64,000 bases of DNA from Mobula hypostoma. Its lineage: Eukaryota. Each line of letters starts with the position of its first letter. The first letter of the stretch is position 1. Below, one piece after another: positions 5,428 through 48,975 of the stretch. Where the stretch lies: positions 118,608,001 to 118,672,000 of the forward strand of contig NC_086097.1 in NCBI RefSeq assembly GCF_963921235.1, written 5' to 3'. The notes under the pieces are model-generated. The model saw nothing but the letters and a program-made list of their open reading frames with translations. It was not told where the DNA came from and ran no database searches. The position numbers and the translations under genes were made by a program.

Positions 5428-6955
5428 GTTGTTCATCCTTCCTAGTCGAAGATGACCATGGCTTCAAAGTCAAATGGGAGATTGGTGGCTGTGGGTCCGG
5501 AGGTGACTGACGAGGCCAATCCGGGCCCTGAAGGCTCGCCCACATGTGGGACACAAGTGGGTGGGTGCTGTCGTGGCAGTGGATGCTGCTCGGGCCTTGC
5601 GCACAGCACGCTTTCGTTGTGCCTTGATGATGCGCCTGACGTCAGCTGCACGGGCTCCTGTGGTGATCTTGCTGCGCCAAGCTGGACGGTCAAGGGCAAG
5701 CGTCTCCCACGTGTTGATGTCGACACCCAGGCCTTTGAGGGACGCTTTCAGGCAGTCTTTGTAACGTTTCTTCTGCCCCCCGACTGAGCGCTTGCCCTGA
5801 CACAGTTCTCCGTACAGCAGCTGCTTAGGCAATCGGCTGTCTGGCATTCTGACCACACGTCCAGCCCACCTGGTTTGGACTTTCAGCAGGAGGGTGTAGA
5901 CACTGCAGAGCCCAGCTTGTTCCAGGATTTCCATGTTGGGGACTTTGTCCTGCCACCTGATGTGGAGGAGTCTGCGGAGACAGCTCAGGTGAAAGTGGTT
6001 GAGCTGTTTGGCGTGTCTGCTGTAGACAGTCCAGGTCTCGTTGGCGTAAAGGAGGGTGGTAAGGACCACTGCACAGTACGCCTTCAGCTTGGTGGTAAGG
6101 CTGAGTCCTCTCCGCTCCCAGACGTTCTCACGGAGTCTCCCAAAGGCGGCGCTGGCTTTGGCAATCCTGTTGTTGACCTCAGCGTCTATGTTCACTGCGC
6201 GAGAGAGTATGCTGCCCAGGTAGGTGAAGTTGTCGGCTGCCTGGAGGTTCTGGCCCTTCACCGTGATGCGCAGCTCCTGGTATGGCTTTCCTGGGGCAGG
6301 CTGGTACATAACTTCGGTCTTTTTGGTGCTGATAGTGAGACCGAAGTTGTCGCAGGCTTGTGAGAAGCAGTCCATTTCACGCTGCATCTCCTGCTCTGTG
6401 CTGGCGTTGAGTGCGCAGTCATCAGCAAAACACAAGTCTCTGATGACAGTCTCTCGCACCTTTGTAACTGCCTGCAGGCGCCTAAGGTTGAACAACCTGC
6501 TGTCAGTCCTGTACTTGATGTGGATTCCTTCTTCGTAGTTATGGAAGGCATCTGTCAGCATGGCAGAGAATACCATACTGAACAGAGTCGGGGCAAGAAC
6601 GCAGCCTTGTTTGACGCCATTTGTCACTGGGAAGGCCTCCGACTCGTCGCCGTTATCCAGAACTTTCACCATCATACCGTCGTGGAACTGCTGGACGATT
6701 GTGATGAACTTGCTGGGGCAGCCAAACTTCTCCATGATCTTCCACAAGCCTTCTCTGCTGATCGTATCGAAAGCCTTGGTTAGATCGACAAAGGTCACGA
6801 AGAGGTCGCTGTGTTACTCCTGGCATTTTTCCTGGAGTTGGCGTGCAGCAAAAATCATGTTCTCGGTCCCACGTTCAGCACGGAAGCCACATTGGCTTTC
6901 TGGGAGCAGACCTTGCTGGAGATGTTGGAGAAGGCGGTTGAGCAGGACGTGCTGT
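5428..6955 (-). mobile_element. Young 5'-truncated RTE-clade (BovB-like) LINE
   Basis: 13-bp TSD GTGCAATAACCTT at 5415-5427 and 6956-6968; 3' end reads GGATGAACAAC(AA) on the minus strand; GC- and CpG-rich relative to the flanks. Confidence 0.95.
5470..6950 (-). pseudogene. RTE reverse transcriptase with C-terminal zinc finger, 5'-truncated, one in-frame stop
   Basis: 442-aa ORF 5470..6798 with FVDLTKAFD, GVKQGCVLAPTLF, FADD, FTYLGS and CPTCGRAFRARIGLVSHLRTH. The frame continues upstream as LLPESQCGFR...QEKCQE*HSDLF, with a single TAA at 6814-6816. Confidence 0.93.
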
Positions 6956-19218: not shown

Positions 19219-22200
19219 TGTCAGCTGTGCACAGGCAGACACCTCCCAGTCGCTACCCAGTTAACAGCAGTCACCTGCCACTCATTCCAACTGATCACCT
19301 GCAGCCTAGTTAAACCCAGCTCTTATCCACTGTATTTGTTCACCCATCAAATCAGCCAGACTCGTCCAGTTTCTCCTAGCTTTCACTTACCTTGTTCCCT
19401 ATAGCATTTAGTATCTGTTCTCTGATGGTATCTGACTCCTCACAGCTTGTTATTTTCACAATCTATTGTTAAAGTTATTATTCACAACTGACTCATCTCG
19501 GCTGCTCTGCTTTTGGGTTAAGCCTACTCTACATTTCCTGATCGAATAGGTGAACCAGTGATTGACCCAGCAGAGTTTGCTCATCTAAAGGAAGTCACCC
19601 CTTGATATGAGCACACAATCCAGAAGCGGCCGGAAACCATTGACAATCTGCTTACTACTCTCAACTAACTCTCCATCTTGTTACAGCAAATCCGTGCCGG
19701 TCAATCTCATCTCTTGGAGCCCCGGATTCCAGTGTCTGAACGCTTCAATAGATCCCCAACCCAATGCCACAACCTTCTGTCCCACTGCGTGTTGAGCTTT
19801 GAGCGCCAGCCATCTCTGTATTCTACATACAAAACTAAGATTGCCTCCATCCTTTCTCTCTTGACTGGGTGAGCTCTAACCTGGGCCACCGCTAATTAGA
19901 ACAATAAGATGACCATTTGCAATATATATTAGGAATTCACCACTGAGGTGCATCTGGTTTTCGACCATCCAGGAAGTGGAAGGGAGGCAGTAGATCAGAT
20001 ATTTCACCTGCATCGAGACTCACGCTAGGTGGCAGATTACACTACGGAATTCAGGAACCTTGTGACAGAGTACAGCTGGAATGCAGAAGCGATGCTGGGC
20101 AATTGTTATCACAACTTCTCAAAGCACTTTGAAAGATGACCTGAGTACCCAGCAGAAGCCCACCGACCTCAAAAGCCTCATCATTCTGGCCCTTTGTATT
20201 GAAAAGCATTTATTGAATTATCATCCAGGACCCCAGTTTCATTCTAGACTGTGGGACCCTCCTCAGCCACACCAATTGGACCCATGCAGTTAGAGAGAGC
20301 TCCTTTGACCAGTAACCCCTCCTCCCCAAGAGCGTGAGCATCAGTGGAGAAACAACTTGTGTGCTTACTGCAGGGCAGCTGATCACTTACACATCAAGTG
20401 CCCACTGCATCGGGAAATAGTACCAGGTGGTGATGAGGGGCCTTCTATCTGGTAAGCTTCCCCCAGCTCCTTGTTCCAGCACCATAGCCCGACTCACTCT
20501 CTCTGTCTTCCTCCACACCCCAATGGCTCTATGCATATTGGTGGCTCTAGTGGATTCCGGCACAGCGGCCAACTTAGTTTGCAGCCTGGACTCCATACCA
20601 AGCCTATCTCTCCCCCTTTCTGCATCATGGCCATGGACGGATGTCGGTTGGGGTCACAGATGTTAGGAGTGCGCACAGCCTGTGCACATGAGCAGCAGAA
20701 AGCACTGCGAGTCAACCAAATTCCTGCTTATCAGCTCACCCAACACTTCTCTCATCTTGGATTACCCCTGACTCTCCACTCACAACCTTCACTTCACTTG
20801 GTAATCAGTTCACTGAAGAGTTGGGGACCCACCTGCCTGCAACTTCAGTTGACTTCAACCTGTAAGTCCATGGAGACAGAGGAAACCTTTGACCTCACCA
20901 AACTCCCAAAGGAATACCACAACTTAGTCATCATCTTCAGTAAGTGGAAAGCCAGCACTCTGCCACATAACAGACCACATGGCTGCACAATCAACCTCCT
21001 CTGGGGCACCACCCTTCCCTGAGGTTGTCTATTCTCCCTCTCCCCTACTGAAACCTAATTCATTAATAACTACAGTTCCAAAGCACTACAGCGCAGCTTC
21101 AGTCAACCATCGCAGTTCCCAGCCAGTGGAGGATTCTTCTTGTCCAAAAGAATGATGGGAGTCTCTAACCCTGCTTTGACTACCATGGACTCAACAAAAT
21201 CACCATTTTGAACTGTTACCCTCTACCTTTGATGGACAACACATTCAAAACACTCTATAGTGCCTTGATCTCCAACTAATTGCATCTACTGAGTGTGTAC
21301 AACCTGATTTGCATCTGCCAGGGGGATGAGAGGAAGATGACATTCATACTCCACATTGGGCACTACAAATACTTGGTGATGTTTTTCAGATTTTCCAAAG
21401 TTCCAGTAAATTTCCAAGCCTTTATTAACAATTTCCTCTGAGACATGCTACACAGGTATGTGCTCGTCTACTTTGATGACATCTCCATCTTCTCTAAGGA
21501 CACTCAAGACCACGTCTGTCATGTCTGATCAGTCCTTCAGCATCTCGTCAAAAACTAGCTGTTCTACAAGTTAGAGAAATGCCAGTTCCACACTCCAGTA
21601 ATTTCCTCTAGGTTACATCTTTTCACCCCAAGGCATAACCATAGACACAGAGAAAGTGTGTGCCATCATTGAATAGCTCTGACTGTGCTCCCTTCAACAG
21701 CCTCAAGTTGGGTTTCTCCAACTGCTACAACCATTTCATCAGGAACTTCAGCCAAATCACTGCTCCACTCACCTCTGTCACCAAATCACCTACGTTACAG
21801 AGGACCTGGTCTGCTGCCATGGACCACACTTTCAAGGAGCTCGAGATGCTTTTCACCAACGCTTCTATTCTCCACCAACCAAACCTCTCTGAACCTTTTA
21901 TGGTAGAGGTGGATGCACGTGAGGTGGGCACTTCTCCCAGTGAGGACCAGACAGTAAGACTCACTTTTGTGCCTTCTTCTCGCTCAAATTCAACTCTACA
22001 CAGTGCTGTTATTGAGCAGGATGCAGGGAGTTACTCGCCATTAAATAGAGACATGAAGTCATTGGCTGTTGGGAAACACCAAGCCCTTCCGGATCTGAGC
22101 TGACCACCAGAACCTCATATCCACACAACAGACCCACCAACCCAACTCTCATCAGGATCTCTGGAACCTCCTCTTCAAGCAATTCAACTTCATCATCTCC

Positions 22201-23446
22201 TATTGACCCAGCTCCAAGAACGCTGAGGCAGATGTCCTGTCACAACAGATCAACCCAGCCAAAACAGGTATCAATGCTCAGTACATCATTCCATCCTCGC
22301 AGGTCCTCACTTCAATCGTCTAGGATCCTGAGGACCAGACCGTGAGCCTCCAACAACCACGTGTACATGCCGGTCGCTGTGCACTCTGAGGTTTTCCAGT
22401 GGATCCACTCCCCACCTCTTTCCGGCCATCCAGGTGCACGACAGACACTGGATTTTCTGCTACACTGGTTTTGGAGGCCCACTATGATCACAGATGTATG
22501 TCAGTTTGTCACTGCCTGAGCTCAATTGCCCAGTCCATTTTTTCCAACCAGTATTCCTCTAGGCTCCTGTGGCTCCTAATGTTCCCCTGACACCTGTGGT
22601 CCCACATTGCCATGGATTTTATCATGGGTTTGCCATCTTGCAGTGGGGCTACGGTGATCACAATGGTGGTGAACCGGTTCATTGCCCTCCCCAAACTTCC
22701 ATCAGCTGCTGAGACAGTGAACCTGGTTCTCCAAAATGTAGTTTTCCCCCATGGTTTCCCTTAGTGCTTTGCGCCAGATCAGGGCCCACAATTCGTCATC
22801 CACTTCTTGCAAGCCTTCTGCTCCCTCATCAACACCTGTGAGTTTGTCCTCTGGCTTTCATCTGCAGACCAATCGTCAATCAGAAAGAGCCAATTAGCAA
22901 GTGGAGAAGTTTCTGCAACACTTTACCACCTCTAACCCTTCCACAGATGTATCTGCTTGGTGCAGACCTGTCCCAAATCCACACACCTCCTCGACCTTTA
23001 AAGTGCTTTTTGGCTACCAATCTCCACTGTTCTCCCTTCTTCCAGGGCCCTGGTTTGTCACTGCCAGAGTGTTTGGAAGAAGGCACAGAGAGCCATTCTG
23101 GCTGCCAACCGTGCTTACTGCTACCAGACCAACTGCCGGTGGCCCCCAACCAGATTTCTCCAGCCTGGCTGTCCACTCCAAATCTGCCCTTGCGCATCGA
23201 CTCCCACAAGCTCTCTCCCTGGTTCATTGGTCTCTTCAACATCAATCCAGTCACTTACCATCTCCAGCTGACGATGTCCCTCAGGATTACAACTACCTTC
23301 CATGTGTTCTGCCTCGAGCCCGTTGACCATGGGCCATGCACCTACACATGCAAGGTTGGTGGAAGGTGCTCCAGTGTACACAGTTTGCCAGTTGATGGAT
23401 TCACGTTGTTGTGGATGGGCTAGGCAGTACCTGGATGACTGGGAAG
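19219..23446 (+). mobile_element. Gypsy-2: degenerate sushi-like chromodomain Gypsy (5' LTR and internal region)
   Basis: LTR from TGTCAG at 19219 to about 19542; gag PRIPVSERFN; GGGAAA slippery-like site near 20412; protease ALVDSGTAAN; RT YFDDI; RNase H FMVEVDA; integrase; start of chromodomain YTVCQLMDSR...QYLDDWE. Confidence 0.92.
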
Positions 23447-32859: not shown

Positions 32860-33490
32860 CCTGAACCTAATGCAGTGGCCACTGAGTGCATGTTCATTGC
32901 CATCGGCTTTTATAGCCCGTCCATGTCAAGTTTCCACGTGTTGTGTGTTCAGAGATGCTCATCAGTACATCACTGTTTTAATGTGTGGTTATTTCACTTC
33001 CTGTCGCCTTCATATCAGCTTGAACTAGTCTGGCCATTCTCCTCTGATTGCCCTCATTAACAATTTTGTTTCAGCCTCAGACTGCTCGCTAGATTTTTTT
33101 TTGTTTTTCGCACCACTCTCTGTAAACTTTAGAGTCTATTGTCCATGAAAATCCCAGGAGATCAGCATCTTCTAAGATACTCAAACTGCCCTGTCTGGCA
33201 CCAACAATCATACTACAGTCAAACAACAGGAATTCTGCAGATGCTGGAAATTCAAGCAACACACATAAAAGTTGCTGGTGAACGCAGCAGGCCAGGCAGC
33301 ATCTCTAGGAAGAGGTGCAGTCGACGTTTCAGGCCGAGACCCTTCGTCAGGAATAACTGAAGGAAGCTTCCTTCAAGGAAGGAAGGGTCTCGGCCTGAAA
33401 CGTCGACGGCACCTCTTCCTAGAGATGCTGCCTGGCCTGCTGCGTTCACCAGCAATTTTTATGTGTGATACTACAGTCAAAGTCACTTAG
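32860..33490. mobile_element. Non-autonomous Tc1-type element, opposite orientation, hosting the Penelope fold-back
   Basis: Contains agtggccactgagtg and ctagtctggccattctcctctga, the reverse complement of the family body. Confidence 0.65.
33224..33467. mobile_element. Penelope pseudo-LTR fold-back insertion
   Basis: 86-bp inverted arms (33260-33345 and 33382-33467, 2 mismatches); 14-bp TSD ATACTACAGTCAAA at 33210-33223 and 33468-33481. Confidence 0.9.
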
Positions 33491-35533: not shown

Positions 35534-36364
35534 AAACAACAGGAATTCTGCAGATGCTGGAAATTCAAGCAACATACATCAAAGTTGCTGGTGAACGCAG
35601 CAGGCCAAGCAGCATCTATAGGAAGAGGCGCAGTCGACGTTTCAGGCCGAGACCCTTCGTCAGGACTAACTGAAGGAAGAGTGAGTAAGGGATTTGAAAG
35701 TTGGAGGGGGAGGGGGAGATGCAAAATGATAGGAGAAGACAGGAGGGGGAGGGATAGAGCCGAGAGCTGGACAGGTGATAGGCAAAAGGGGATATGAGAG
35801 GATCATGGGACAGGAGGTCCGGGAAGAAAGACAAGGGGGGGGGTGACCCAGAGGATGGGCAAGAGGTATATTCAGAGGGACAGAGGGAGAAAAAGGAGAG
35901 TGAGAGAAAGAATGTGTGCATAAAAATGAGTAACAGATGGGGTACGAGGGGGAGGTGGGGCCTTAGCGGAAGTTAGAGCAGTCGATGTTCATGCCATCAG
36001 GTTGGAGGCTACCCAGACGGAATATAAGGTGTTGTTCCTCCAACCTGAGTGTGGCTTCATCTTTACAGTAGAGGAGGCCGTGGATAGACATGTCAGAATG
36101 GGAATGGGATGTGGAATTAAAATGTGTGGCCACTGGGAGATCCTGCTTTCTCTGGCGGACAGAGCGTAGATGTTCAGCAAAGCGGTCTCCCAGTCTGCGT
36201 CAGGTCTCGCCAATATATAAAAGGCCGCATCGGGAGCACCGGACGCAGTATATCACCCCAGTCGACTCACAGGTGAAGTGATGCCTCACCTGGAAGGACT
36301 GTTTGGGGCCCTGAATGGTGGTAAGGGAGGAAGTGTAAGGGCATGTGTAGCACTTGTTCCTCTT
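35534..36364 (-). mobile_element. Young 5'-truncated Penelope-like element
   Basis: Minus strand reads GPKQSFQVRHHFTCESTGVIYCVRCSRCGLLYIGET*RRLGDRFAEHLRS; TSD AAAATCTTT at 35525-35533 and 36365-36373. Confidence 0.92.
35632..35667 (-). ncRNA. Minimal type I hammerhead ribozyme motif in the Penelope pseudo-LTR
   Basis: Minus strand AGUC-CUGACGA-AGG(gucucgg)CCU-GAAA-C-GUC-GACU: stem I AGUC/GACU, CUGAnGA and GAAA cores, GUC cleavage triplet, palindromic ACGU in place of stem III. Confidence 0.75.
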
Positions 36365-36690: not shown

Positions 36691-39008
36691 ACTTTACTTT
36701 ACTTTACGTTTCTTTATACTTTATTGTCGCCAAACAATTGGTACTAGAACGTACAATCATCACAGCGATATTTGATTCTGCACTTCCCACTCCCTGGATT
36801 ACAAATATTAAATATTAAAATATTAAAAATAGCAAATATTGGTAAATAATAAAAATTTAAACTACAAATCATAAATAGAAAAATAGAAAAATGGAAAGTA
36901 AGGTAGTGCAAAAAAACCAAGAGGTAGATCCGGATATTTGGAGGGTACGGCCCAGATCCGTGTCAGGATCCGTTCAGCAGTCTTATCACAGTTGGAAAGA
37001 AGCTGTTCCCAAATCTGGCTGTACGAGTCTTCAAGCTCCTGAGCCTTCTCCCAGAGGGAAGAGGGACGAAAAGTGTGTTGGCTGGGTGGGTCGTATCCTT
37101 GATTATCCTGGCAGCACCGCTCCGACAGCGTGCGGTGTAAAGTGAGTCGAAGGATGGAAGATTGGTTTGTGTGATGTGCTGCGCCGTGTTCACAATCTTC
37201 TGAAGCTTCTTTCGGTCTTGGAAAGGACAACTTTCATACCAGATTGTGATGCACCTCAGAAGAATGCTTTCTACGGTGCATCTATAAAAATTAGTGAGGG
37301 TTTTAAGGGACAGGCCAACTTTCTTTAGTTTTCTCAGGAAGTAAAGGCGCTGGTGGGCCTTCTTGGCAGTGAACTCTGCTTGGTTGGACCAAGTCAGGTC
37401 ATTTGTGACATTGACCCCAAGGAACTTAAAGCTTTTGACCTGTTCCACTTGCGCACCGCTGATGTAAATTGGGTTGTGCGGTCCGCTACTCCTGAATTCA
37501 ACAACCAATTCCTTCGTCTTGCTGACGTTGAGGGATAGGTTATTGTCTTTGCACCAGGTTCTTAATTTCCTCTCTGTACTCAAACTCATCATTACCCGAG
37601 ATACGGCCTACAATTGTGGTGTCATCAGCAAACCTATATATTGAGTTTAATGGAAACTTGGCTGCACAATCATGGGTGTACAGTGAGTACAGCAGGGGGC
37701 TGAGTACACAGCCTTGTGGGGCACCGTTGCTCAGAGTGATTATAGAGAGGAGAGCTTGTCCCCTATTCTTACAGACTGGGTCCTGTCTGTGAGGAAGTTG
37801 AAGATCCAGCTGCAGATCTGAGTGCTAATGCCTAGGTTCTGGAGCTTAGGAATCAGTTTATTTGGAATGATGGTATTAAAGGCAGAGCTGTAGTCAATGA
37901 AAAGGAGCCTTATGTATGCATCTTTATTCTCCAGGTGTTCTATGGAGAAATGTAGGGCCAGAGAGATGGCATCTGAGGTTGACCTGTTGCTCCGGTAGGC
38001 AGATTGCAAAGCATCGAGGTTGACCGGTAGGCTATGGTTGATGTGTGCCATAACCAATCTCTCAAAGCACTTCATAGCAATCGATGGTAGAACCACAGGT
38101 CGATAGTCATTCAGACATGCCACCTTGCTCCTCTTCGGCACTGGGATTATCGTTGCCTTCTTAAAACACGAGGGGATCTTAGACTGAGGCAAGGAGCAGT
38201 TGGAGATGTCAGCAAACACTCCAACTAGCTCACTTGCACAGGCCCGGAGAACCCATCCTAGGACACCATTTGGGCCCATTGCCTTCCATGGATTTATCTT
38301 CAGGAAGGCCTTTCTAACGTCCTCCTCGGTAATGATGAATCTCGATGCCACCAGGTCTGGTTCATCCGGAGGGAGCGGGACGCTCCTCTTCTGTTCGAAT
38401 CTTGCGTAGAATATGTTAAGTTTGTGAAGCGCCACAGTTCTTGATATCCCCAGCCTTTTCTTTGCACCCAGTGATCTCATTTATACCCTGCCATAGTCTC
38501 CTGGCATCCCTTTGGTTAGCCTGGGCTTCCAACTTGGCTCGATACTGCCTCTTGGCGCCCTTAATGGCTTTCTGGAGTTTCACTGATGTTGGTATACAAT
38601 TTCACTGATGTTGGCATATAGTATGTTCAGAGCACACTCCACCTCTGCCTGGGGGGGTGGTATGTAGACCACTGTCAGTATGACCGAGGTGAATTCCCGT
38701 GGCAGATAGTAGGGACGACACTTCACTGACAGGTATTCCAGGTCCGGGCTGCAGGAGCTTGTCAGTGCCACTGTGTCCAAGCACCACGCAGTGTTGATCA
38801 GTAGGCAGAGACCACCTCCCCTCGTCTTGTCTGAAGATGCCGTGCGGTCCAACCGATGGATCGAAAATCCCTCCGGTCGGATGGCACAGTCGGGGGTGGC
38901 AGGGGAGAGCTAGGTCTCGGGGAAACAGAATACACAGCAGTTCTGCATCTCCCTGCAGTAGGCTAGTCTCCCTTTAAGATCATCCACCTTGTTCTCTATG
39001 GCTTGCAC
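36691..39008 (-). mobile_element. Rex1/Babar LINE (APE endonuclease plus RT) with internal deletions
   Basis: DRTASSDKTRGGGLC (APE); NDYRPVVL, LFIDYSSAFNTI, FKFLGV and KAHQRLYFLRKL (RT); (GTAAA)n tail at 36691-36707. Confidence 0.92.
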
Positions 39009-40959: not shown

Positions 40960-43900
40960 TGTTACGTACCCCGTAACTGGGTTGCCAAACCAGCAGAAAT
41001 GGATCACTCAGTTGGAGTCTGGAGTACTAGAACTAAGAAAGTTTTATTAAAGAAACAAGCAACACAGTAATCGAAAGGATAATAAATGCAACAGTTCAGC
41101 GATGATAAACACACATGTGCACAGAATTAAGATAACAGCATCAATCAAGCTCTATCGTTGTCTAGGGGTAAATGACCAAATTTCAAAGTGACTCAAAGTT
41201 CAGTCCAGTTTAGTAGTTCAGTTCGCAGTAATCGTTGCCATGGCGATGGACAATGTTGGGGGAGAGAGAGAGGGAACAGGAACAACTGATCATTCAGACA
41301 ATCCTTCACTCACAGACCAGCGAGATGGCTCACAAGCAACTTTTGGGCGGGTCCTTGGTGATGTCACCTGAGGTCACCGACTGTGACCCCTCCTCCAGAT
41401 GCGGTCGATCCTCTGCAGTGAACCCGGCACCCAGGCAAGGGCGGACACACACCGGGTTCCCGCTGATCGTACCTTTCCACCCTGGCCGTTGTCTGGTACT
41501 TCCCACCGACTCGTGAGAAGCGTACCGCTTCCAGGGTCTTGTTACCTCGGGTGGCGTGTGTGTCCTGCCTTAGCGAACCGGTCCCTTTTTATCCCCCTGC
41601 TGGGGTATCGCCTGTCCATCACTTCAAACAGTTCAAGGTTCAAACGGGGGAGCCGCTCCAGACAGCTCTCTCTCCCCCGTCCCTTCATTACACATCTCCA
41701 GACGCTGCTCCATTGTTCCTTATCTCTCCTTCCCCTGAGGGCAGGTGGCAGACCACTTGCTGATGTCATTGATGCTAACCCAGGCCAGCAAACATCTTAA
41801 TTTTATGTGTATTCTTGTCACACTTCCCCCCTTTAAGGATTTTTACCGGGAGGTAAAAATTACAAACGTGAATACATTACTTGATACATACACAAATATA
41901 CATCTTTAACAGCTACTTGGCTAACACAGCGAGTTTGAAGCTGTCAACACCTTGACAGACAGTCATCACATTTTCTGTTCCTTTTACACGTGTTATTAAT
42001 AATCCCTTAGACCAGGCTCCAACTCAGCAAACTTCATAGTGGCCAAAAACACTGATGAATTGCGACCAATGTAACCTCTCATTTGGTTTTGTCCCGGACC
42101 ACAATAACAAGGGTCGTCCCATTCCGACTCAGTTTTCTCTCGCAAGGGCTTAGTAGGAGGGGGACGGGTATTGACTGCAGAGTTATTGCAAAACTTCCTG
42201 CAGTACCCCACCATCTCCAAGAGCCTTCTGAGGGCCCTCTTGTCTGTCGGGGTTGGGAGGTCAGCGATAGCCTGCACTGTAGCTTGCATCGCTGCCAGCT
42301 GCCCCTGTGTCACCACAATTCCCAGGTAAGTGACCCTCGTGTGGCCGAATTCATTTTTTTCAAGGTTCACTATCAAGCTGGCTTCAGACAGCCGTATTAA
42401 ATTGCCAATACACACCTCTGTGTTCATCAGCCCTTTAGTCACTGAATTACTCATTATATACGAGTGTTCTTTACTAGGCTGCCCTATTGTAACAGACATC
42501 ACCCAACGTCCCAGTTCTTTGCATTTCCTCGGGACAATCAAACACACGGGTGCGAGTCGTTTAATTACTTCTTCTAAAGATTTGCTTTGTTCGAGGATTA
42601 AGGGAGAGACCTTATCAGTAGACCTGGCCAAAACAATAGCCTTCTCCCATCTGACCGATCCCATCCTAATCTTTTCAAAATGGTTTTTTCCTCTTATCAG
42701 GGGGCCCCTAGCTTCATTGATTTCCACGCTAACACTGACTAGGTTTGTTAGCATATCAAAAGCCGGTGACCATCTCAGTTCGCGTCGGTCATGATCAATA
42801 ACATTTTTCCCCCTGGGCAGCCGGTAAATCTCTTTCATGATTCCACCAACTGTTTCCTCCAGCACCGCAAAATGTCCACCGGGGGGTACCTCGTGGGCCA
42901 TGTTAAAAACCTCATCCCCATAACTCTTTTGCACCACCCCCCACTCCTCACCTGCAGATACTGTACTTGATTTCCCTTTTAGCACTTCCTCCTCCGCACA
43001 ATAGCCTACTAGTTCCCTTGTCAAGGCTGTGTCAGAGAGAGCGGTCTCTGCCAAAACCATCAGCCCCTCGTCTCGCTCCTGCATCTGCACAAATTCTTTC
43101 CTGGCTACTACTACGTCCGTCCCAGCTCCCTCACTACACCCCGTCTCATACAAGGTTGGCAGAAACGTTTCAGCTAAATTCACTATCGCGGGCCCGTGGT
43201 TAACCTGTGAGTCCATGGGTGGGGCCTCAATGCTGGCAGGCTGACCTGTCAATCTCACGACTGGGAACACGATTCCTCCGGCGATGTCATTACCGAGCAA
43301 GACTTCCACGCCTTTCATCGGTAATTCGGACCTCACCCCGATCGTGACTAGTCCAGAGACCAGGTTGCTTTGTAAGTGTATCTGGTGCAAAGGGACTGAC
43401 TCTGTCCCTTCCCCAACACCTTTGACCTCTACCTCCCCAGTCTGGGTCTCTGAGCTAAACTCTAATACACTCTTCAGTATTAGTGACTGACACGCTCCCG
43501 TGTCTCTCCAGATCCGCACTGGAACTGGTTTTAACCTCTCCTTCACTGACACCAATCCGGCCGAGATAAACCTCTCGCGCCCTTCCTGGACTTTTTCAGA
43601 CCTGTCCTTCCCTAGCGGTTCGCTTAACAGCTCGATACAGCCATTCAAAATTTCCGCTTTTCCTTTCCCCGTCTCCTTCTTTGGGGCAAAGCACCTGGAC
43701 GCAAAGTGTCCGACTTTCCCACAATTATAACAGACGACCCCAGGAGACTTCCGACCAGACTGCTCTCGGTCTACCTTATCCTTTTCACTAGTCCCCGGCT
43801 TACTTTCTGACTTTTCCGGCGGACTCTCCCCGCCGTCCTGACTACCCTTCTGGTAGCCTTTACTCGGAGCAAACTTCATTTTATGCGTCAACGCATACTC

Positions 43901-44074
43901 ATCCGCTAACTTAGCAGTTGCGGCTAACGTGGCTGCCTCTTTCTCATCGAGGTAGGGTCTCATACCCTCAGGGACACAACCTTTAAAACTGCTCAATCAG
44001 GATCAGCTGCAGCAGTCTGTCATAATCCCCCTCTACCCCCTTCGAGGCGCACCAATGCTCACAATATGTCTGCA
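40960..44074 (-). mobile_element. Gmr1-like Gypsy LTR element, 5'-truncated, with internally deleted pol
   Basis: 3' LTR 40960-41822 with TG...CA termini; PPT AAAGGGGGGAAG adjacent at 41823-41834; 666-aa ORF. Confidence 0.88.
41996..43996 (-). CDS. Gag (CCHC knuckle)-aspartic protease fused to integrase/RT remnants
   Basis: AKLADEYALTHK; CYNCGKVGHFASRC; IWRDTGACQSLI...LLGNDIAG; AHEVPPGGH (IN zinc region); LIVNLEKNEFGHTRVTYLG and ALRRLLEMVGYCRKF (RT). A 1-bp frameshift near 43986 separates it from upstream gag (LLQLILIEQF), so the listed start is not the true start. Confidence 0.8.
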   Translation of the reverse strand: MSSFKGCVPEGMRPYLDEKEAATLAATAKLADEYALTHKMKFAPSKGYQKGSQDGGESPPEKSESKPGTSEKDKVDREQSGRKSPGVVCYNCGKVGHFASRCFAPKKETGKGKAEILNGCIELLSEPLGKDRSEKVQEGRERFISAGLVSVKERLKPVPVRIWRDTGACQSLILKSVLEFSSETQTGEVEVKGVGEGTESVPLHQIHLQSNLVSGLVTIGVRSELPMKGVEVLLGNDIAGGIVFPVVRLTGQPASIEAPPMDSQVNHGPAIVNLAETFLPTLYETGCSEGAGTDVVVARKEFVQMQERDEGLMVLAETALSDTALTRELVGYCAEEEVLKGKSSTVSAGEEWGVVQKSYGDEVFNMAHEVPPGGHFAVLEETVGGIMKEIYRLPRGKNVIDHDRRELRWSPAFDMLTNLVSVSVEINEARGPLIRGKNHFEKIRMGSVRWEKAIVLARSTDKVSPLILEQSKSLEEVIKRLAPVCLIVPRKCKELGRWVMSVTIGQPSKEHSYIMSNSVTKGLMNTEVCIGNLIRLSEASLIVNLEKNEFGHTRVTYLGIVVTQGQLAAMQATVQAIADLPTPTDKRALRRLLEMVGYCRKFCNNSAVNTRPPPTKPLREKTESEWDDPCYCGPGQNQMRGYIGRNSSVFLATMKFAELEPGLRDY

Positions 44075-44900
44075 ATATAGTGCAAAACAATTTAGACACA
44101 GTGTTCATTAGTGAAAGAATGTAAATTTATTGTGATTTCTTTTCTTTGGCACGTAGCCCTTGTAATCCACAATGCTGACGTCTTAGTAGGCAGCACTATG
44201 CTTTATAACTCTATGACTATAACTTTGATTTTAGGATTTAGAAATTTGCTACATTATGATTCTGAGATACACACTACTAATTATTGATATATTTAAGGTT
44301 AAATTGTAACATCTATTTACCTTTATTGACTTGGAAACTTTTAAAAGCTTGTACACATATCTACAATGGTGAATCTTTTAGTACTGTACAATTAATCTGG
44401 AGAGAGTACTGACATTCTATATTAAAACGGTCAAACTTATGGCGAAGGGCAAAAGCAGAAAAATAAAGTTCTTGCCATTCTGTCGTCTTCTTCCACATCA
44501 TTAGGAACAGATTACAAAACCTTCTAAATTTAATAAATAATTTCTCGTTTAGAATCAGTTGTGATGAAGAATAATATTATAAAGCACAACATCTGTAGTT
44601 AGGACATGTTCGGCACAGCTTTGTGGGCTGAAGGGGGCCTATATTATGCTGTAGGTTTTCTATGTTTCTATGTTTTTTAACACCTATAGTTATTGAATTG
44701 ATCATGAAGATGAGGGTATATTTATATATTTAATTGAAATATTCCCTAACTCCATTCAAAGAAGGGAAGGCTAAACATTTGCTAAATATTTGTCTTCAGC
44801 TCATGTCACTAAAATAGATTATCTGCTAATTACTATATTTTGATGTGGAAGATACAAACTGGCTGCAGCATTTCCCATTTTAGAACAGTGACTAAATATA

Positions 44901-46536
44901 CAGTGCCTATAAAAAGTATAGAAACTATACTATATAAAACTATAAAAATTTCCCCTTGGAAATTTTCATCTTTTATTGTTTTACAGCATTGAATCACAGT
45001 GGATTTACTTGACTTCTTTTGACACTGTTCACAGAAAAAGACTCTTTTGTACCAAAGTGAAAACAGGTTTCTACAAAGTGATCTAAATTAATTACAAATA
45101 TGGAACACAAAATACTTAATTATGTAAGTATTCACCCCCTTCAACTCAGTACTTAATAGATGCACCTTTGGCAGGAATTACACCCTTGAGTCTGCATGGA
45201 CAGGTGTCTATCAGCTTTGAACATCTGGACACTGTAGATTTTCCCCATTCTTCTTTATAATACTGCTCAAGTTCTGTCAGATTGCATGGTGATTGTGAGT
45301 GAACAGCCCTTTTCAAGTCCAGTTACAAATTCCCAATTGGATTGAGGTTTGAACTCTGACTTGGCCATCACAGGACATTAACTTTGTTGTTTTTAAGCCA
45401 TTCTTGTGTAGCCTTGGGGTCATTGTCTTGTTGGAAAACAGATCTTCTCCCATGTCGCAGTTCTCTTGCAGACTGCATCAGGTTTTCCTCCAGGATTTCC
45501 TGTATTTTGCTGCATTCATATTACTCTCTACCTTCCAGGGCCTGCTGTAGTGAAGCACCCCACAGCATGAAGAGACACTACATGCTTCATGGAAGGGATG
45601 GTGTGTTTTTGATGATGTGTGGTGTTACGCTCAACATTGTGTCTAATCTGAAGTCTAAGAGCTTAATTTTGGTTTCATCAGACCACAGAACCTTCTTCCA
45701 GCTGACCTCGGAGTCTCCCACATGTCTTCTGGCAAACTGTAGCCAACATTTCCTGTAAGTTTTTTTTCAACAGTGGTTTTCTCATTGCCACTCTCCCATA
45801 AAGCTGTGACTGGTGAAGCACCCGGGAACAGCTGTCATATGCGCGGTCTTTTCCATCGCAGCTACTGAAGCTTGCAACTCCTCCAGAGTTGCCATAGGTT
45901 TCTTGGTGCCCTCCCTCACCAGTCCCCTTCTTTCACAGTCACTCAGTTTTTTGAGGACGGCCTGCTCTAGGCAGATTTACAGCTGTGCCATATTGTTTCC
46001 ATTTCTTGATGATTGACTTCACTGTTCTCCAAGGGATATTCAGTAACTTTGAAATTTTCTTGTATCCACCTCCTGACGTGCTTTTCAATAACTTTTTTGT
46101 GGAGTTGCTTGGAGTGTTCTTTTGTCATCATGGTGTAGTTTTTGCCAGGATATTGATTTACCAGCAGTTGGACCTTCAAGGTATCTGTGGTATTTTTACT
46201 ACAATCATTGAAACATTTTGATGCACACAGGTCTCCAAAAACAGATCCCTATTCAACTAATTATGTGACTTCTAAAATAAATTGGCTGCACCAGTGATGA
46301 TTTGGTGTGTCATATTAAAGGAGGGGAATACTTATGTAATCAATTATTTTGTGTTTTATATCTGTGATTAATTTAGTTCACTTTGTAGAGATCTGTTTTC
46401 ACTTCAACAGAAATGAGTCTTTTTCTGCTGATCAGTGTCAAAAAAGCCATATTAAGTCCATTGTGATTTAATGTTTTAAAACAATAAAACAAGAAGACTA
46501 CCAAGGTGGGTGAATGTTTTTTTTATAGACATTATG
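44901..46536 (-). mobile_element. Tc1-family DNA transposon with long IR/DR-type TIRs and degenerate transposase
   Basis: TA|CAGTGCCTATAAAAAG start; about 200-bp inverted termini with inner repeats gtattcaccccct (about 45128) and aggggaatac (about 46322); transposase start MTKEHSKQLHKKVIEKH; TA at 46537. Confidence 0.88.
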
Positions 46537-47099: not shown

Positions 47100-48975
47100 A
47101 AAGAATCAAAAGGAGGTGAGCGTTGATATTGGGCTGCTGGAAAATGATGTTGCTGAGGTGATAATGGGGGAGCAAAGAAATGGCAGATGAACTTAATAAA
47201 TACTTTTCTCCAGCCTTTTCTTCTCCAGCATACTAGTTGTATGCCAGAGGTCCATGAGTGTCATGGAGCAGGAGTGAGTGCTATTGCTATTACAAAGGAA
47301 AAAGTGCTGGGCAAACTGAAAGGTCTTAACGTGGATAAGTCACCTGAACCAGATGGACTACATCCTAGAGTTCTGAAAGAGGTTGCTGAAGAGATAACGG
47401 ATGCATTGGTCATGATCTTTCAAGAGTCACTTGATTCTGGCATGGTTCCGGAGGACTGGAAAATTACAAATGTCACTTCACTCCTTAAGAAAGGAGGAAA
47501 ACAAAATAGAGGAAATTATAGGCCACCGAGCCTAACCTCAGTGGTTGGGTAAGTGTTGAAATCCATTATCAATGATAAGGTTTCAGGGTACTTGGAGACA
47601 AATGATAAAACAACTCAAAGTCAGCATGGTTTCTGTAAAGGGAAATCTTGTCTGACAAATCTGTTAGAATTCTTCGAGGAAGTAACGAGCAAGGTGGACA
47701 AAAGAGAGGTAGCGGATGTCATTTACTTAGATTTTCAGAAGGCATTTGATAAATTGCCTCACGTGAGGCTTTTTAATAAGATGTAATCTTATGGTGTTAC
47801 AGGAAATATACTGACATGGATAGAGAAATGATCAACAGGCAGGAGGCCATGAGTGGGAATAAAGGGGACCTTTTCTGGTCGGTTCAGTGACTAGTGGTGT
47901 TCCTCAGGGAGCAGTGTTGGGACTACTACTTTTCACATTGTTTGTCAATGATTTAGATAGTGGAATTAATGGCTTTGTGGCAAAGTTTGCAGATGATATG
48001 AAGATAGGTAGAGGGATAGATAATGCTGAGGAAGTAATGCATGGGCAAAGAAGTAGCAGATTGAATACAGTGTTGGGAAATGTATGATAAAGCATTCTGG
48101 CAAAAGGAGCAATATGTGGACTATTATCTAACTAGTGACGAAATTCATACACCAGAGGTGTAAAGGGACATAGGAGTCCTTGTACAAGACTCCCAGAAGG
48201 TTAATTCACAGGCTGAGTCTGTGGTAAAGCAGGCAAATACAATGTTGGCATTTATTTCAAGGGGAATAGAATATAAAAGCAAGGAGATAATGCTGATAAC
48301 AACAGGAATTCTGCAGATGCTGGAAATTCAAGCAACATACATCAAAGTTGCTGGCCTGCTGCGTTCACCAGCAACTTTGAGATAATGCTGATCCTTTATA
48401 AGACACTAGTCAGGCCGCACTTGGAGTATTGTCAACAGTTTTGGGCCCTTATCTCAGAAAGGATATGTTGTCCTTGGAGACAGTCCAAAGGAGGTTCATG
48501 AGGATGATTCTGGGAATGAAGGGGTTAACATATGAGGAACATCTGGCAGCTTTGGGCCTGTAGTCATTGGAACTTAGAAGAACGCGTGGGGATCTCTTTG
48601 AAAGCTACCGAATGTAGAAAGGACTAGATAAGGTGGATGTGGAGAGGATGTTCCCTCTGGTAAGGGTATCCAGAACTAGAAGGCACAGACTCAAAATTGA
48701 GGGGCAACCTTTTAGAACAGAAGTAAGGAGGAATTTTTTTTAGCCAAAGAGTGGTGAATCTGTGGAATGTTCTGTGGAAAATGTTCTGTGATGGAGTCAA
48801 AGTTTGTGGGTATATCTAAAGTGGAAGTTGATAGATTCCTGATTGGTCGGTGCATCAAGGGATATGGTGAGAGGGAAGACATATGGGATTGAATGGGATA
48901 CAAGATTTGCCATGATGAAATGGCGGAGTGGACTCAATGGGGGCTGATTCTGCTCCTATGTCTTATGGTCTTATC
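47100..48975 (+). mobile_element. CR1 LINE ORF2 and 3' UTR, degenerate
   Basis: KSPEPDGLHPRVLKE, GNYRP, SQHGFCKGKSCLTNL, YLDFQKAFDK, SGVPQG, KFADD. Confidence 0.93.
48298..48378. mobile_element. 81-bp Penelope micro-insertion with inverted 5' part
   Basis: Starts aacaacaggaattctgcagatgctggaaattcaagc, as at 33224 and 35534; 14-bp TSD GAGATAATGCTGAT at 48284-48297 and 48379-48392. Confidence 0.88.

Follow-up and report, generated by a model that had tools for sequence, protein, structure and literature searches.

A non-autonomous Gmr1-type element of Mobula whose decayed pol is probably held open for a benefit in cis

The 64-kb window studied here, meaning the whole stretch of Mobula hypostoma DNA that was analysed, contains a 5'-truncated copy of what appears to be a non-autonomous, Gag-keeping LTR retrotransposon of the Gmr1 type. 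In this copy, the capsid end, NC and protease run in one frame into a long remnant of a dead pol. It was shown statistically, from sequence comparisons, that this tail has probably been selected to stay open, while its residues are barely under selection. We put at about 60% the probability that selection holds the frame open for a benefit in cis, either the stability of the element's RNA or the packaging of that RNA, and not for a function of the pseudo-Pol protein.

The copy in the window

The copy lies on the minus strand and comprises the following features.

40960..44074, minus strand: the whole copy, a 5'-truncated, non-autonomous Gmr1-type element, delimited by family cover and a search of the window
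43987..44074, minus strand: gag codons upstream of the frame break (SCAN/capsid C-terminal domain); frame 1 matches profile positions 252-283
41996..43996, minus strand: open frame with capsid end, NC, protease and compressed pol remnant, from the frame call and the profile
43691..43735, minus strand: intact CCHC zinc knuckle (Pfam zf-CCHC, aa 88-102, E 8.7e-6)
43247..43582, minus strand: aspartic protease with DTG at 43504-43496, from sequence and profile, as well conserved as in autonomous elements
42782..43108, minus strand: pre-integrase region together with the zinc-finger half of IN that carries HH, from the profile, with the junction of the large deletion in IN at its end
42452..42781, minus strand: IN C-terminal end and RT N-terminal remnant, placed by a weak profile match (0.4 bits), ending at the RT-deletion junction
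42398..42418, minus strand: dead RT motif C, EVCIGNL, from the profile, followed by a deletion of 18 aa that is confined to the young family
42101..42391, minus strand: end of the RT palm and thumb remnant, from the profile (93 bits), the best-preserved part of the tail
41967..42100, minus strand: RNase H remnant, from weak matches, with the stop at 41998-41996
41823..41834, minus strand: polypurine tract (PPT) abutting the LTR, from sequence
40960..41822, minus strand: 3' LTR of 863 bp with TG...CA ends and one AATAAA at 41048; in other copies the LTR end joins many unlike flanks

The open frame extends from stop to stop over 43996..41996 on the minus strand. With 666 codons, it is the longest of the 16 frames of at least 150 aa in the window. 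The frame, the intact CCHC, the DTG protease, the PPT and the well-formed LTR of the original prediction were all found by Pfam, sequence and profile. In the 666-aa frame, zf-CCHC was the sole Pfam family to pass the cut-off, and the Pfam profiles rve, RVT_1 and RNase H gave no matches there, in agreement with the claim that the catalytic cores are dead. The remnants were placed using a profile built from 30 full-length relatives, which recovered the capsid C-terminal part, NC, PR, IN, RT and RH in this order in a single frame, much as had been proposed. A match of aa 533-612 to the Ty3 RT (E 8e-5) was also obtained. The predicted structure of the frame had a mean pLDDT of 27 and the protease fold was not recovered either, while the best ESM Atlas hit (0.81) led to RT-like clusters and was taken as a lead only.

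Two of the remnants require correction. The IN zinc region had been described as present, and its HH half is, but the CxxC half is lost as well. The supposed RNase H-like end HVKGTENV reads RVKGTENV and is found at 41990-41967, in a different frame from the 666-codon frame. There are three weak motifs of the RNase H end, each in a frame of its own, and only the last reaches E 0.003, which indicates that the frame was probably not kept quite to the ancestral RNase H end.

At its 5' side, the copy is without the 5' LTR, the PBS and approximately the first 290 gag codons, and no second LTR was found in the 64-kb window. In four public runs, the read cover by the family ends at about 44074 on this side. 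Near 43985, a frameshift of 1 nt separates the upstream gag codons from the 666-codon frame, and at this break the window sequence deviates from much of the family read depth. The predicted 5' truncation and 1-nt gag frameshift were thereby both recovered.

Several other elements were observed in the window. Inverted repeats of about 190 nt at 44893-46506 presumably flank an apparent decayed DNA transposon of the Tc1 type. A short repeat whose inverted arms of 91 nt are 96% complementary is present in three related copies at 33255-33472, 35534-35679 and 48298-48380. Labelled by eye only are a LINE-like RT frame of 447 aa at 5470-6813 (minus strand), a broken LINE-like element at 36963-38909 (minus strand) and pieces resembling another gypsy element at 20456-23423 (plus strand).

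The Mobula family and the loss of its pol

A search with the tail returned nine proteins, all named from M. hypostoma or M. birostris, and the clusters of those nine matches added 10 more. The full-length family proteins carry a SCAN capsid domain (PF02023 in P0001, E 3e-11); the domain is cut in the window copy and gives no match there. Eight of 18 close proteins have the same last residue as the window copy, and the remaining 10 end earlier. The deletion junctions are common to all long young-family proteins, so the proposed non-autonomous family with shared junctions and an open frame is borne out, and the idea that the deletions are unique to this locus could be rejected. Parts of the stretch are present in twenty public runs from four organisms, and both the tail and the protease are deeply covered in the four runs examined. 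In three of these runs, the loose flanks attached to the LTR end number 131, 123 and 14, and their agreement is low. Taken together, the shared junctions and the many flanks at the LTR end mean that the deletions are family-wide and the insertions many. A hand estimate, in which a summed depth of 200,000 is divided by a junction depth of 10.6 and 31-fold overcounting is allowed for, suggests at least some hundreds of copies, the contig depth itself being no copy number. The stretch is also present in runs guessed to be RNA, although presence there does not equal transcription. The upstream flank at 44268-44500 had no cover in any of four runs, which proves nothing.

The pol of this family was lost stepwise, by in-frame deletion, from an IN-bearing Mobula lineage, as two relatives show. 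The M. birostris protein P0006, about 52-57% identical in the tail, represents an older lineage. At its first junction, profile positions 731-1018 are lost (about 290 aa, including CxxC, the IN core and most of the C-terminal domain), and at its second, positions 1141-1266 (about 126 aa, including the RT fingers and motifs A and B'). Motif C of P0006 reads YIGD, where the window has EVCIGNL. Both junctions recur in the young family, where another 18 aa following motif C have gone. The other relative, P0032, retains a complete zinc finger and the first part of the IN core, and in a capsid-protease tree P0032 and P0033 are the nearest kin of the Mobula family (96/96 and 99/98).

Gmr1-like Ty3/gypsy elements have the order SCAN-PR-IN-RT-RH according to bioRxiv 10.1101/2025.03.03.638093, and Pfam likewise places IN after PR and before RT-RH in the relatives P0036 and P0020. 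The Mobula family agrees with them in the SCAN and CCHC of its full-length members, the single frame, the PR-IN-RT-RH order, the PPT and the TG...CA LTR. It differs in length, about 970-1000 aa (939-1004 aa in the full-length proteins) against about 1550 aa, and in that the core of IN, motifs A/B'/C of RT and the greater part of RNase H are either missing or inactive. By Pfam and profile, the Mobula element has no intact IN DDE, RT YxDD or RNase H. The family thus lacks all catalytic cores of IN, RT and RNase H, while Gag and protease are kept; since many insertions were nevertheless made, RT and IN must come in trans from a helper. No autonomous helper was found, the IN-bearing relatives P0032 and P0033 being only partial, and the protein searches found no full-length Mobula Gag-Pol, such frames possibly being unannotated.

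One explanation is that the host retains the protein, as a domesticated Gag-PR-tail or a restriction factor. Some annotated models do fuse element sequence to host gene names. However, the many dispersed insertions with LTRs, the many broken copies (including that of the window) and the lack of any sign of a single orthologous locus make this explanation very improbable.

Two further observations concern the family proteins. In the N-terminal part of P0001-P0019, the Gag coiled-coil varies between copies by in-frame repeat expansion. P0001, P0016, P0213, P0219, P0221 and P0230 are element proteins annotated under host gene names, which suggests that gene models splice into or mis-join copies.

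A stingray sister family with a different tail

In the Hemitrygon protein P0038, the protease is followed by a different long tail. Searching with this tail gave 41 proteins, 40 of which are named from Hypanus or Hemitrygon, and one end motif is shared by 16 of the 41. No RT remnant was found in the stingray tail. Instead, it begins with a short pre-IN stretch and then resembles a decayed second capsid end-NC-protease (26% over 231 columns, E 1e-6). Origin by duplication is also indicated by profile matches, and within-protein matches were obtained in two of the three proteins tried. This filler of about 330 aa is without CCHC and without DTG.

In the capsid-protease tree, the stingray proteins group on a branch by themselves (100/99), separate from the Mobula family and the IN-bearing relatives of that family. 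The separate branch and the unrelated filler together indicate that in two lineages Gag-PR is probably followed by several hundred codons that are kept open but differ in origin. A single loss of pol common to both families is disfavoured, as the Mobula family groups with the IN-bearing P0032 (96/96), though this relies on the capsid-protease tree only, and recombination is possible. Among the stingray copies, the filler is 76% alike and the protease 73%; this equal likeness may reflect private decay dominating the comparison, or real constraint.

Some features of individual members were also noted. In the sister family (P0038 and P0202-P0241), the last residues all have purine-rich codons, and the stingray frame may therefore end in the PPT. 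The Hemitrygon protein P0229 combines the stingray filler with an IN zinc-finger piece and a Gag nearer the Mobula side of the tree; it is possibly an intermediate or a recombinant.

Selection on the tail and its likely cause

The selection statistics are derived from proteins and read variants, and annotated proteins are biased towards long frames. The window protease is 40-53% identical to three autonomous outgroups, and that of P0032 36-49%. For the pre-IN block, the identities to the same outgroups are 33-36% in the window and 50-55% in P0032. The branch since the P0006 split amounts to 0.45 changes per site for the window and 0.34 for P0003 (133 columns), and the changes at aa 270-516 relative to P0006 have a mean BLOSUM score of -0.4 to -1.1, against about -0.5 in a neutral simulation. 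Compared with six full copies, the window is 2.0% different in Gag-PR and 6.6% in the tail.

The openness of the tail was assessed by simulation and by the kinds of change seen. At 25-35% divergence, the simulated chance of a stop-free tail is 0.7-0.3% from substitutions alone, before in-frame indels are counted, which agrees with the original prediction that neutral decay would hardly leave the tail open. Among the 40 of 334 variants listed, 25 fall in the tail and none of these is a stop. Six indels common to at least two copies are in frame. Among the 12 of 37 indels listed, eight of the nine in the LTR and 3' UTR have a length not divisible by three, those of the LTR being mostly 1-2 nt, whereas both tail indels are 6 nt.

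These results bear on the possibility that there is no selection on the tail at all. A few lucky open master copies would have been amplified, template switching with helper or sister RNA would have refreshed parts of them, and annotation bias would have done the rest. Such an account would fit the early end in 10 of the 18 proteins, the frame-slipped RNase H end and the tail indel markers, which are mosaic among copies and point to recombination. It would also fit the pooled tests, which were not significant: over all copies, the shared changes per site were 0.085 in Gag-PR versus 0.114 in the tail (p 0.28). Frameshifted ends are common to the pairs P0004/P0005 and P0007/P0008. The sites concerned are single-base runs in the window and the copies differ in indel markers; recurrent slips, recombination or true inheritance may each be the reason, and these could be replicated lineages. 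However, the low simulated chance, the different indel lengths in LTR and tail and the parallel result in another lineage, whose filler is unrelated, all speak against an absence of selection, which we consider improbable.

The original prediction had placed the selection on the pseudo-Pol protein itself. In that case, a part of the tail, most likely the RT palm/thumb, would work within the Gag-PR precursor by binding RNA or helper Pol, and would recruit the helper's enzymes or restrain the helper. The thumb piece is indeed 68-73% identical to P0006, compared with about 55% upstream, but the significance is borderline (p 0.04-0.07). Its changes relative to P0006 are milder (BLOSUM -0.04 to -0.30), and it is 51% identical to autonomous elements, which are 61% identical among themselves. 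Among the variants listed, 10 of the 25 in the tail are synonymous, against an expected 27% or so (p 0.11), which is compatible with mild protein constraint. A precedent might be seen in the fusion protein of the mouse IAP 1Δ1 element, which is said to act in cis (PMC6466679). However, an 18-aa piece beside the thumb is deleted, and the remainder of the tail changes near-neutrally and far faster than the protease. The early ends of 10 of the 18 relatives, the apparent frame slip at the extreme end and the unrelated filler of the stingray sister family, without any RT remnant, also argue against the tail protein as the target of selection. We regard a working tail protein as unlikely, though less so than an absence of selection. 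The Gag-PR part, on the other hand, is plausible as a supplier of capsid, as had been suggested, and of protease.

The preferred reading, a benefit in cis, would operate as follows. The unspliced RNA of the element would be message and genome at once. Full translation would yield Gag-PR that packages its own RNA, and reading through would keep the stop near the 3' LTR, whereby the RNA would escape the degradation that a premature stop provokes. The tail would be mere filler, removed by the protease. Copies that stop early would multiply less, and either decay escape or packaging could be the benefit. There are precedents: early stops destabilise or lower unspliced RSV RNA through Upf1 (PMC2925335), and the in-frame gag-pol fusion of IAP 1Δ1 is presented as acting in cis (PMC6466679). 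Against this reading, some 950 nt still separate the stop of the window copy from the AATAAA.

IAP 1Δ1 is also one of several known systems that parallel the Mobula family: it is likewise a non-autonomous deletion derivative, in which an in-frame gag-pol fusion helps in cis. In PMC6466679, it is betaretrovirus-like, has a single deletion and its pol remnant is not described as decayed; the Mobula family has several deletions and heavy near-neutral substitution, with the protease kept. The wheat elements RLG_Quinta and Sabrina are non-autonomous gypsy elements that keep Gag and are thought to supply capsid, and in Quinta, Gag is fused to a domain of unknown function (PMC11302176). These are plant elements with an identified helper, and the extra domain is given there without a known source and with no test that separates selection on the frame from selection on the protein, whereas the Mobula tail is a pol remnant. 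Bovine ERVK[2-1-LTR] D-type elements and mouse ETn/MusD are described in PMC10924933 as abundant defective parasites of an autonomous element; unlike the Mobula family, the D-type elements are without any intact frames according to the same text. Neither the Mobula family nor selection on the frame alone in elements of this kind was found described in the literature searched, which lay outside subscription journals and Repbase/Dfam. Non-autonomous gypsy elements keeping Gag are also known as TR-GAG.

A wider proposal, to which we would give somewhat less than even odds, is that 'open filler' LTR parasites recur, with at least two origins in rays. The codons after Gag-PR would stay free of stops whatever they encode, the passage of the ribosome to near the 3' LTR being what is selected. 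If true, open-filler elements would constitute a natural test of whether the decay of early-stop RNA or translation-coupled packaging shapes the frames of retroelements. Since natural copies both with and lacking early stops are numerous, they would provide material for models of RNA decay and cis-packaging, and the case is relevant to the competition in which defective retroelements prevail over their helpers. It also warns against taking an extended open frame in a repeat for a functional protein, dozens of such frames being annotated as ray genes. Here, translation itself, and not the protein made, is probably what was selected in the long frame of a vertebrate repeat.
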